Below are positions 18,408-19,269 of a DNA stretch of 64,000 bases, piece after piece. Below the pieces are notes generated by a model. That model saw nothing but the letters and a program-made list of their open reading frames with translations. It was not told the origin of the DNA and ran no database searches. The translations under genes and the position numbers were made by a program. Source of the DNA: Candidatus Segetimicrobium genomatis (GTDB lineage Bacteria > Sysuimicrobiota > Sysuimicrobiia > Sysuimicrobiales > Kaftiobacteriaceae); NCBI GenBank assembly GCA_005882335.1, contig VBAP01000009.1, positions 48,303 to 112,302 on the forward strand, given 5' to 3'. How positions within the stretch are numbered: position 1 is the first letter of the stretch; every line of letters begins with the position of its first letter.

Positions 18408-19269
18408 GGTGTGACGAACCGGCGCACCGCGATCATACTGCCGGTCGCTCCCACGATGACTCCCGCGGCGAACAGGACGGTCGCTGCCGTCCGCAGCGCC
18501 TCGGCGATTGACACCAGCGGCAGAAACGGCAGTGCGCTGCTGATCCGCATCGCGCCCAGCGTATACAACCCCGCGAGGACCACCGTGGCCATGGCCGCAG
18601 CCGCTGCGCCTTCCAGGATCCCCTCCAGCAGCAGCGGCCACTGGATGAACCAGCGCGTGGCCCCCACCAGTTGCATGATTTCGATCTCCCGGCGGCGGGC
18701 GATGACGGTCAACCGAATCGTGTTCACGACGACGATCAACGCGACGGCCCCAAGGAACAGCGTCAGCAGGGCGGCCAGCATCCGCACCCCACGGGTCAGA
18801 GCCAGTAGTCGATCCGTCACCTGTGCCCCATAGGTCACGTCCTCAACTCCTGACACACCGGCGACAATCCCGGCGAAGGCCTTGCTGCGCAGAGGATCGC
18901 GGAGGCGGATTTCAAGCGAGTCAGGGAGCGGGTTGGCTGCCTCCAAATCGTGAGGCGTCGCAGCGCTTCGCTGCGGCTCACGAATCGCACCGACGCCACC
19001 TCGGGCAACGCCGCGATGGCACGCTGGGCACGAGCCGTCTCAGGTGCCGTCAGACCGTCGTGGAGAAAGGCGACCACCGCCACCTCCGACTCCAGTGTGG
19101 CTGCCAGGTGCGACAGGTTGAGTCCCAGGACCACCGCGGTCCCGACCACCAGCAACGCCACCACGACCGTCGTCACGGCGGCGATCGTCATCAGTCCGTT
19201 GCGGCGGAAGCTGGCGGTCGCTTCAGCGGTGAAATAGATGGCCTGCTCGGCCACGAGGCGCGTGCGCAC
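18404..19269 (-). pseudogene. ftsX: cell-division ABC permease FtsX, interrupted by a -1 frameshift near 18944
   Basis: The N-terminal ORF (19269-18835) reads ...VASVRFVSRSEALRRLTIW..., then runs out of frame. The C-terminal ORF (18946-18404) begins (L)EAANPLPDSLEIRLRDP, the FtsX periplasmic-domain signature. Adding one T to the run in cacgaTTTggagg would restore a single frame. Confidence 0.7.

Follow-up and report, generated by a model that had tools for sequence, protein, structure and literature searches.

A split ftsX in an uncultured soil bacterium, probably a local assembly error at a strain-variable site

Results

The ftsEX module and its neighbours

The window, by which we mean the whole 64,000-nt stretch of DNA analysed here, carries on its minus strand ftsE, ftsX, a gene for a coiled-coil M23 peptidase and a gene for an S41 protease. 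The original prediction, made from the sequence, held that ftsX is broken into two overlapping ORFs within an otherwise intact module, and this was borne out: ftsE, the M23 gene and the S41 protease gene are whole, and both ftsX ORFs match FtsX profiles.

19284–19970, minus strand: ftsE, 228 aa, intact (280.5 bits on TIGR02673, cut-off 264.85)
18835–19269, minus strand: N-terminal ftsX ORF, frame A, 144 aa
18404–18946, minus strand: C-terminal ftsX ORF, frame B (frame A minus 1), 180 aa
17256–18407, minus strand: coiled-coil M23 peptidase, presumed partner of FtsEX, 383 aa, intact (Pfam CC_PcsB and Peptidase_M23)
15596–17086, minus strand: S41 C-terminal processing protease of the ctpA/prc type, 496 aa, intact (Pfam PDZ and Peptidase_S41)

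The FtsE product has exact matches on 8 other contigs and the M23 product on 7. The ftsX stop overlaps the start of the M23 gene (ATGA). The N-terminal coiled coil of the M23 protein, a putative FtsX-binding element, matches Pfam CC_PcsB (E = 1.6e-12), and the peptidase domain carries HTGVD (HxxxD) and HLH (HxH) metal-binding motifs. EnvC has a degenerate LytM domain that lacks the metal-binding residues. The name envC given to this gene in the original prediction does not hold, the protein reaching 91.6 bits on the EnvC murein hydrolase activator model NF008644 (cut-off 270) with HxxxD and HxH kept; judging by these motifs and its coiled coil, it is better named a PcsB-type coiled-coil M23 peptidase and is probably catalytically active. 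The name ctpA fared better in part: the next protein is a C-terminal processing protease (301.3 bits on TIGR00225, cut-off 218.6) and reaches 274 bits on the CtpA model NF045588, below its cut-off of 625, so that it is of the prc/Ctp type but not specifically CtpA.

Elsewhere in the window, two small ORFs on the minus strand (25773–26096 and 26328–26729; 107 and 133 aa) have N-termini that resemble signal peptides and C-termini rich in glycine, with RDCACL and RDCGCL as their last residues, and lie in a 2-kb stretch of weak coding signal beside a tRNA-Gln gene (24846–24919). The lineage is an uncultured soil group whose relatives are labelled "Bacillati bacterium ANGP1" and Armatimonadota; a search of the literature under the name "ANGP1" returned angiopoietin papers only.

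The two reading frames of ftsX

Membership of the FtsX family was judged by NCBIfam NF038347 (FtsX_Gpos) and by Pfam PF18075 and PF02687. The N-terminal ORF matches positions 1–44 of Pfam FtsX_ECD (E = 1e-5), and the C-terminal ORF matches positions 63–96 of the same profile as well as the FtsX permease domain (E = 1.2e-8), which places the split in the extracellular (periplasmic) domain, as had been predicted. Since both ORFs match FtsX profiles, the split is confirmed as real in the sequence and is no chance pattern of ORFs. The gene starts at 19269, 14 nt past ftsE, the downstream position characteristic of ftsX. [quoted passage not shown] Residues are numbered here after P0001, the intact FtsX of the same strain (298 aa), against which the interrupted gene divides as follows.

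18952–19269, minus strand: 5' part of ftsX, frame A, residues 1–106, protein identical to P0001 1–106 (Pfam FtsX_ECD 1–44)
18951–18953, minus strand: lesion junction; T18953 closes the left flank, A18951 opens the right flank, and C18952 between them is an orphan base
18404–18949, minus strand: 3' part of ftsX, frame B, from D-LEAANPLP... to the stop; P0001 118–298 except for F129L (FtsX_ECD 63–96 and PF02687)
18835–18951, minus strand: out-of-frame tail of the frame-A ORF (TIWRQPTRSL...ELRT, then stop, by translation); the same DNA encodes FtsX in frame B
18945–18947, minus strand: TTT run, the site proposed for a missing T; ACGATTTGGAGG is unchanged in three intact contigs (L010, L014 and L015)
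18916, minus strand: F-to-L substitution (TTT to CTT) private to the window, 35 nt away from the junction

The 5' part spans TM1, the first beta-alpha-beta motif and the first X-lobe helix up to ...EALRRL, and the 3' part spans the end of the second X-lobe helix, the second beta-alpha-beta motif and TM2–4. In translation, frame A reads ...VRFVSRSEALRRLTIW and continues for 36 residues without relation to FtsX, and frame B reads (L)EAANPLPDSLEIRL... and runs to the normal C-terminus. The lesion aside, the two halves encode the intact protein exactly but for the one F/L difference, and no further decay was seen in either.

Thirty-two nucleotides replaced by one

The lesion was mapped by DNA alignment to L010, L026 and L029, among others, with BLAST HSPs ending at 18953 and 18951. 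L010 (JGI contig Ga0209235_1002230) is near-identical to the window, with about 5 mismatches over its first 9 kb, and encodes the closest intact FtsX. Where L010 has the 32-nt segment GCAACACCGCCTCGGTGACGCACCCGCCTTTG, the window has a single C at 18952 (CGCCT-C-ACGATTTGG in the window versus CGCCT-GCAACACCGCCTCGGTGACGCACCCGCCTTTG-ACGATTTGG in L010), a net change of −31 nt, which amounts to ten codons and one further base. The close FtsX relatives found by protein search are 298 aa long at 95, 93 and 90% identity and the more distant ones about 301–309 aa; at the region of the lesion the intact relatives read ...EALRRLQHRLGDAPAFDDLEAANPLP....

No microhomology was found at the junction. A clean microhomology-mediated deletion was considered and rejected, since deletions through CGCCT (29 nt), through GACGCC (23 nt), or through CGCCT and then TGACG (12 + 15 nt) all fail to yield GACGCCTCACGAT; that junction is fitted solely by the replacement of 32 nt with C or by two deletions (12 + 19 nt). 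A hairpin or other secondary structure was likewise rejected as a cause, the fold z-score of −1.36 being unremarkable. An imperfect inverted repeat of 17 nt abuts the deletion on its left, and the junction does not lengthen it. We found no repeat at the lesion through which an assembler could collapse the region. The substitution at 18916 is the sole mismatch in 5.6 kb to scaffold_351 (in full CRIT18-1_SAMN08902887_scaffold_351, or L025/L019), a 61-kb sibling of the window, and is a mismatch to L026 and L028 too.

The segment that is missing

The residues lost are Q107–F116 of P0001, which in a HMMER alignment correspond to R153–L162 of E. coli FtsX. In E. coli, the X-lobe comprises residues 145–171, and the main contacts with EnvC are made by F152, F158 (at the tip), L162 and L165; both replacement of residues 145–171 and deletion of residues 152–161, the latter a mutant from earlier work cited by the same authors, abolish EnvC binding (Cook et al. 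2020, PMC7668044). An AlphaFold (AF2) model of P0001 (mean pLDDT 82) lays the domain out as strand 65–69, helix 75–86 and strand 91–97, then X-lobe helices 99–110 and 115–122, then strand 128–133, helix 136–147 and strand 152–157; loop 111–114 joins the two X-lobe helices in the model, and the lost residues form the tip of the helical hairpin. None of 43 aligned homologues (47–96% identity) has gaps in the ten missing columns, and L110 and G111 are nearly invariant among them, which argues for strong constraint on the deleted segment. Even a product with its frame restored would still miss the element that couples FtsEX to its hydrolase.

Other copies of the strain

Copies of the same strain were found by exact-product look-up with the FtsE and M23 proteins of the window in JGI, ENA and Logan assemblies. 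Nine contigs from 8 assemblies, 99.7–100% identical to the window, reach the site; all nine have the missing segment, and none has the deletion. One of them (L029) crosses the site intact with 2 mismatches in 2.4 kb. Another (L020) shares 3,613 nt with the window at 100% identity, as far as 18953, then continues with 21 nt of the segment and ends there. A gapped pattern that matches both alleles, run against JGI metagenome contigs for the deleted allele, found intact alleles only, and exact-product look-ups with both frameshift fragments, with V or M as the first residue, gave no match. The 144-aa C-terminal FtsX product that starts at a GTG is on record for scaffold_351 alone, whose ftsX is broken by Ns.

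Assembly failures at and around the site

The same 31 nt are a point of failure in four other assemblies. L020 terminates and L030 begins within the segment; in scaffold_351, which has 1 mismatch to the window in 5.6 kb, a 316-N gap over ftsX has its right edge inside the segment and the contig end to its left is chimeric junk; and in L028 (JGI25384J37096_10019929) a tandem duplication joins two strain variants at a junction within the segment. Of about 11 contig termini within ftsX (~900 nt), 4 lie in these 31 nt, where ~0.4 would be expected. The segment holds 6 strain-variable sites, which puts it in the top 9% of 31-nt windows; a 31-nt invariant run directly precedes it, and the termini lie at or beside the SNPs. 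Such clustering of termini and SNPs is the pattern expected at a branch in an assembly graph.

Closer inspection of two of these assemblies gave some further detail. In scaffold_351 (positions 3823–4168), about 30 nt of non-ftsX junk precede the 316-N gap, which covers the 5' third of ftsX and exceeds the true distance by 29 nt; the sole FtsX call is the 144-aa C-terminal fragment. In L028, positions 1–440 are a chimera: ~230 nt of ftsX come from a strain ~96% identical, after which the sequence starts afresh, in the strain of the window, from the beginning of the 31-nt segment, so that the tandem duplication is an artificial one.

Two sibling assemblies each have a private, frame-disrupting deletion in a neighbouring gene. 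L010 is without 17 nt of ctpA (ACTGAAGATACGGTGCG; window 15786–15802, L010 7320), flanked by a GCGCC direct repeat, and its S41 protease is frameshifted at the C-terminus (458 aa versus 496 aa); the 17 nt are present in the window, scaffold_351, L015 and L017, and at all 4 other loci that cover the site (three distinct contigs). L021 (ENA scaffold CRIT18-1_SAMN08902884_scaffold_65920) is without 94 nt of the M23 gene (window ~17779–17876; L021 2661–2664), with GTGA microhomology, and the gene is split there into calls of 207 and 145 aa; it is intact in the eight other distinct same-strain contigs that cover the site. The window and L010 thus differ by 2 frameshifting coding indels versus about 5 substitutions in 9 kb. 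Such a ratio is implausible as a product of evolution under purifying selection, whereas assembly errors, being blind to frame, would give one.

We found no homopolymer-type coding indels over the 9 kb shared with L010 or the 11 kb shared with scaffold_351, so the assembly is not prone to homopolymer errors. The window has five other overlapping pairs of same-strand ORFs, and these are distinct genes, 9 of the 10 ORFs having essentially full-length Pfam domains and 1 having no match; no obvious split genes were found in its regions of lower GC3.

Further along the same contigs, the identity of L010 (9000–10774) to the window falls abruptly from ~99.95% to ~94% below window position ~14100 (the gdh gene and downstream), unlike that of scaffold_351, which stays essentially identical to the window there. 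Beyond the drop L010 is either a strain switch, that is, a chimeric assembly, or a recombined segment. At ~12950, in an intergenic region, the window has one copy fewer than scaffold_351 of a 10-nt tandem unit, TAGACTGGGG, and five mismatches cluster close by, at 12874–12932.

Discussion

The comparison of assemblies establishes how large the lesion is and where it lies, that no other copy of the strain has it, and that assembly failures cluster at this site. We consider the probable explanation to be a local misassembly of the metagenome at a strain-variable site, the organism itself having a normal, intact FtsX of 298 aa. Several co-occurring strains differ at a cluster of SNPs in 31 nt of ftsX, just past an invariant run of equal length, and it is at this cluster that assembly graphs branch and contigs end; in the scaffold of the window, two contig ends may then have been joined without the intervening 32 nt. 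Such a join would leave C18952 as a base without support, and the substitution at 18916 as an error at a contig tip close by, at a junction presumably backed by no reads, or by aberrant reads only. Metagenome assemblies, those made with IDBA-UD in particular, are documented to contain local errors that corrupt gene calls (Chen et al. 2020, PMC7111523). The lesion resembles the errors described there in being a short stretch of consensus at odds with every other copy in the population, in lying at strain variation where assemblies terminate, and in producing a wrong protein-coding gene call; it differs in that those errors were defined by the absence of perfectly supporting reads, and the lesion in the window was recognised by comparison of assembled sequences. 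The original prediction had leaned towards sequence error over biology, and in this it was probably right; the one-base mechanism that it had in mind does not agree with a net loss of 31 nt.

Several observations count against a misassembly. The junction contains no Ns and may rest on real molecules, the contig of the window is long and clean elsewhere, and the SNP density of the segment is raised but not extreme. De Bruijn assemblers, moreover, do not normally invent a 31-nt deletion where there is no repeat.

Alternatively, one could envision a genuine 31-nt deletion allele with loss of FtsX function, either fixed in the strain of the sample or a minor variant from a sub-population that the assembler happened to follow, and we regard this as possible but doubtful. 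Under such circumstances the protein would be truncated after TM1 and half of the extracellular domain, the codons deleted would be those of the hydrolase-binding X-lobe tip, the adjacent M23 peptidase would no longer be activated under the control of FtsEX, and the ATGA-coupled M23 gene downstream could be translated less through probable polar effects. A deletion accompanied by one non-templated base resembles the outcome of end-joining repair, which favours a real event, as do the junction standing without Ns in the given sequence and the want of any repeat that collapse by an assembler would need; the private SNP linked to it at 18916 could be the marker of a separate haplotype, and the out-of-frame deletions of ctpA (at GCGCC) and of the M23 gene (at GTGA) in sibling assemblies could themselves be real variants of the population. 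A real null allele would not be absurd, since some bacteria tolerate being without FtsX; in B. subtilis, ftsEX is non-essential. E. coli lacking ftsEX does not grow on medium of low osmolarity (PMC7668044). Such an allele would be very recent. Against it, neither half of ftsX exhibits secondary decay. The allele is absent from the 9 same-strain contigs (8 assemblies), from the other relatives and from database products, it would coincide with a hotspot of assembly failure, near-identical assemblies differ by more frameshifting indels per SNP than evolution would plausibly produce, and the segment deleted contains the near-invariant L110 and G111. A broader form of the same idea, in which the 31-nt deletion, the M23 deletion of L021 and the ctpA deletion of L010 are all real and represent recurrent loss-of-function variants of an FtsEX-hydrolase-protease module in one natural population, appears unlikely.

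The homopolymer miscall proposed in the original prediction, in which one T is missing from cacgaTTTggagg and the true gene encodes the repaired product, is highly improbable. It is true, as was predicted, that one T added at 18947–18945 merges the frames, and the resulting product of 288 aa passes the FtsX_Gpos cut-off (239.4 bits versus 225). However, the intact relatives have the same TTT run, which is therefore not the site of the lesion, the window is short by 31 nt rather than 1, and no homopolymer-type coding indels set it apart from L010 or scaffold_351. The repaired product would also be without ten residues kept in 43 of 43 homologues; it scores 29 bits below intact P0001 (268.7 bits, same cut-off) and is about 13–15 positions short on both the Pfam and the NCBIfam FtsX profiles. 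With about 13–18 profile positions missing, the earlier remark that the EAL-to-NPLP linker would remain too short after the repair is correct. The check suggested at the time, a comparison with the FtsX of close relatives, returned intact proteins of 298 aa with the segment present and did not uphold a missing T.

Least probable of all, to the point of being negligible, is a functional split by programmed −1 ribosomal frameshifting or a two-polypeptide FtsX: the ORFs do overlap in frames that differ by −1, and the frame-A stop TGA (18837–18835) overlaps a frame-B GTG (18838–18836) preceded by GGAGttGAGG, so that re-initiation is possible in principle, but the junction has no X XXY YYZ slippery heptamer in frame A (CTC ACG ATT TGG AGG), the TTG at 18946 has no upstream Shine-Dalgarno motif where ftsE and ftsX each have one, ftsX is one ORF in all relatives for which a complete gene call exists, and any product would be without the X-lobe tip, re-initiation at the GTG omitting beta3-alpha2 as well. 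With its GGAGttGAGG, that same GTG accounts for the 144-aa C-terminal fragment that gene callers choose in copies of ftsX with a damaged 5' part.

FtsEX-hydrolase modules are known as FtsEX-EnvC in E. coli, FtsEX-PcsB in S. pneumoniae and FtsEX-RipC in M. tuberculosis. The module in the window is of this familiar kind, with ftsE, ftsX and then a gene for a coiled-coil peptidoglycan hydrolase or activator, its coiled coil matching CC_PcsB, and nothing here is new biology; it differs in having an M23 hydrolase domain with intact metal-binding motifs, an S41 protease gene next to it, and an uncultured soil lineage as its host. The codons missing from the window fall in the X-lobe and cover the positions of W155, F158 and L162, residues in contact with EnvC in E. 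coli; the engineered X-lobe deletions Δ152–161 and Δ145–171 of E. coli abolish EnvC binding and daughter-cell separation (PMC7668044). In contrast to those deletions, which are deliberate and in frame, the loss in the window is out of frame and probably not biological, and where the E. coli partner is the degenerate EnvC, the partner here is an M23 peptidase whose motifs look catalytically competent.

If the split is an artefact, as we consider probable, ftsX should not be annotated as a pseudogene in this genome or counted as a missing cell-division function. Local assembly errors that are left uncurated put broken or incorrect genes into databases (PMC7111523), and the site would then illustrate how strain-variable patches in soil MAGs give rise to gene-breaking errors, three sibling assemblies each having a private frameshift of its own within 4 kb. 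A real deletion would instead parallel in nature the engineered X-lobe deletions of E. coli that uncouple FtsEX from its hydrolase, and would be of modest interest for the biology of cell separation in an uncultured lineage; and if all three deletions were real, they could represent, for example, cell-chaining or separation-defective variants.
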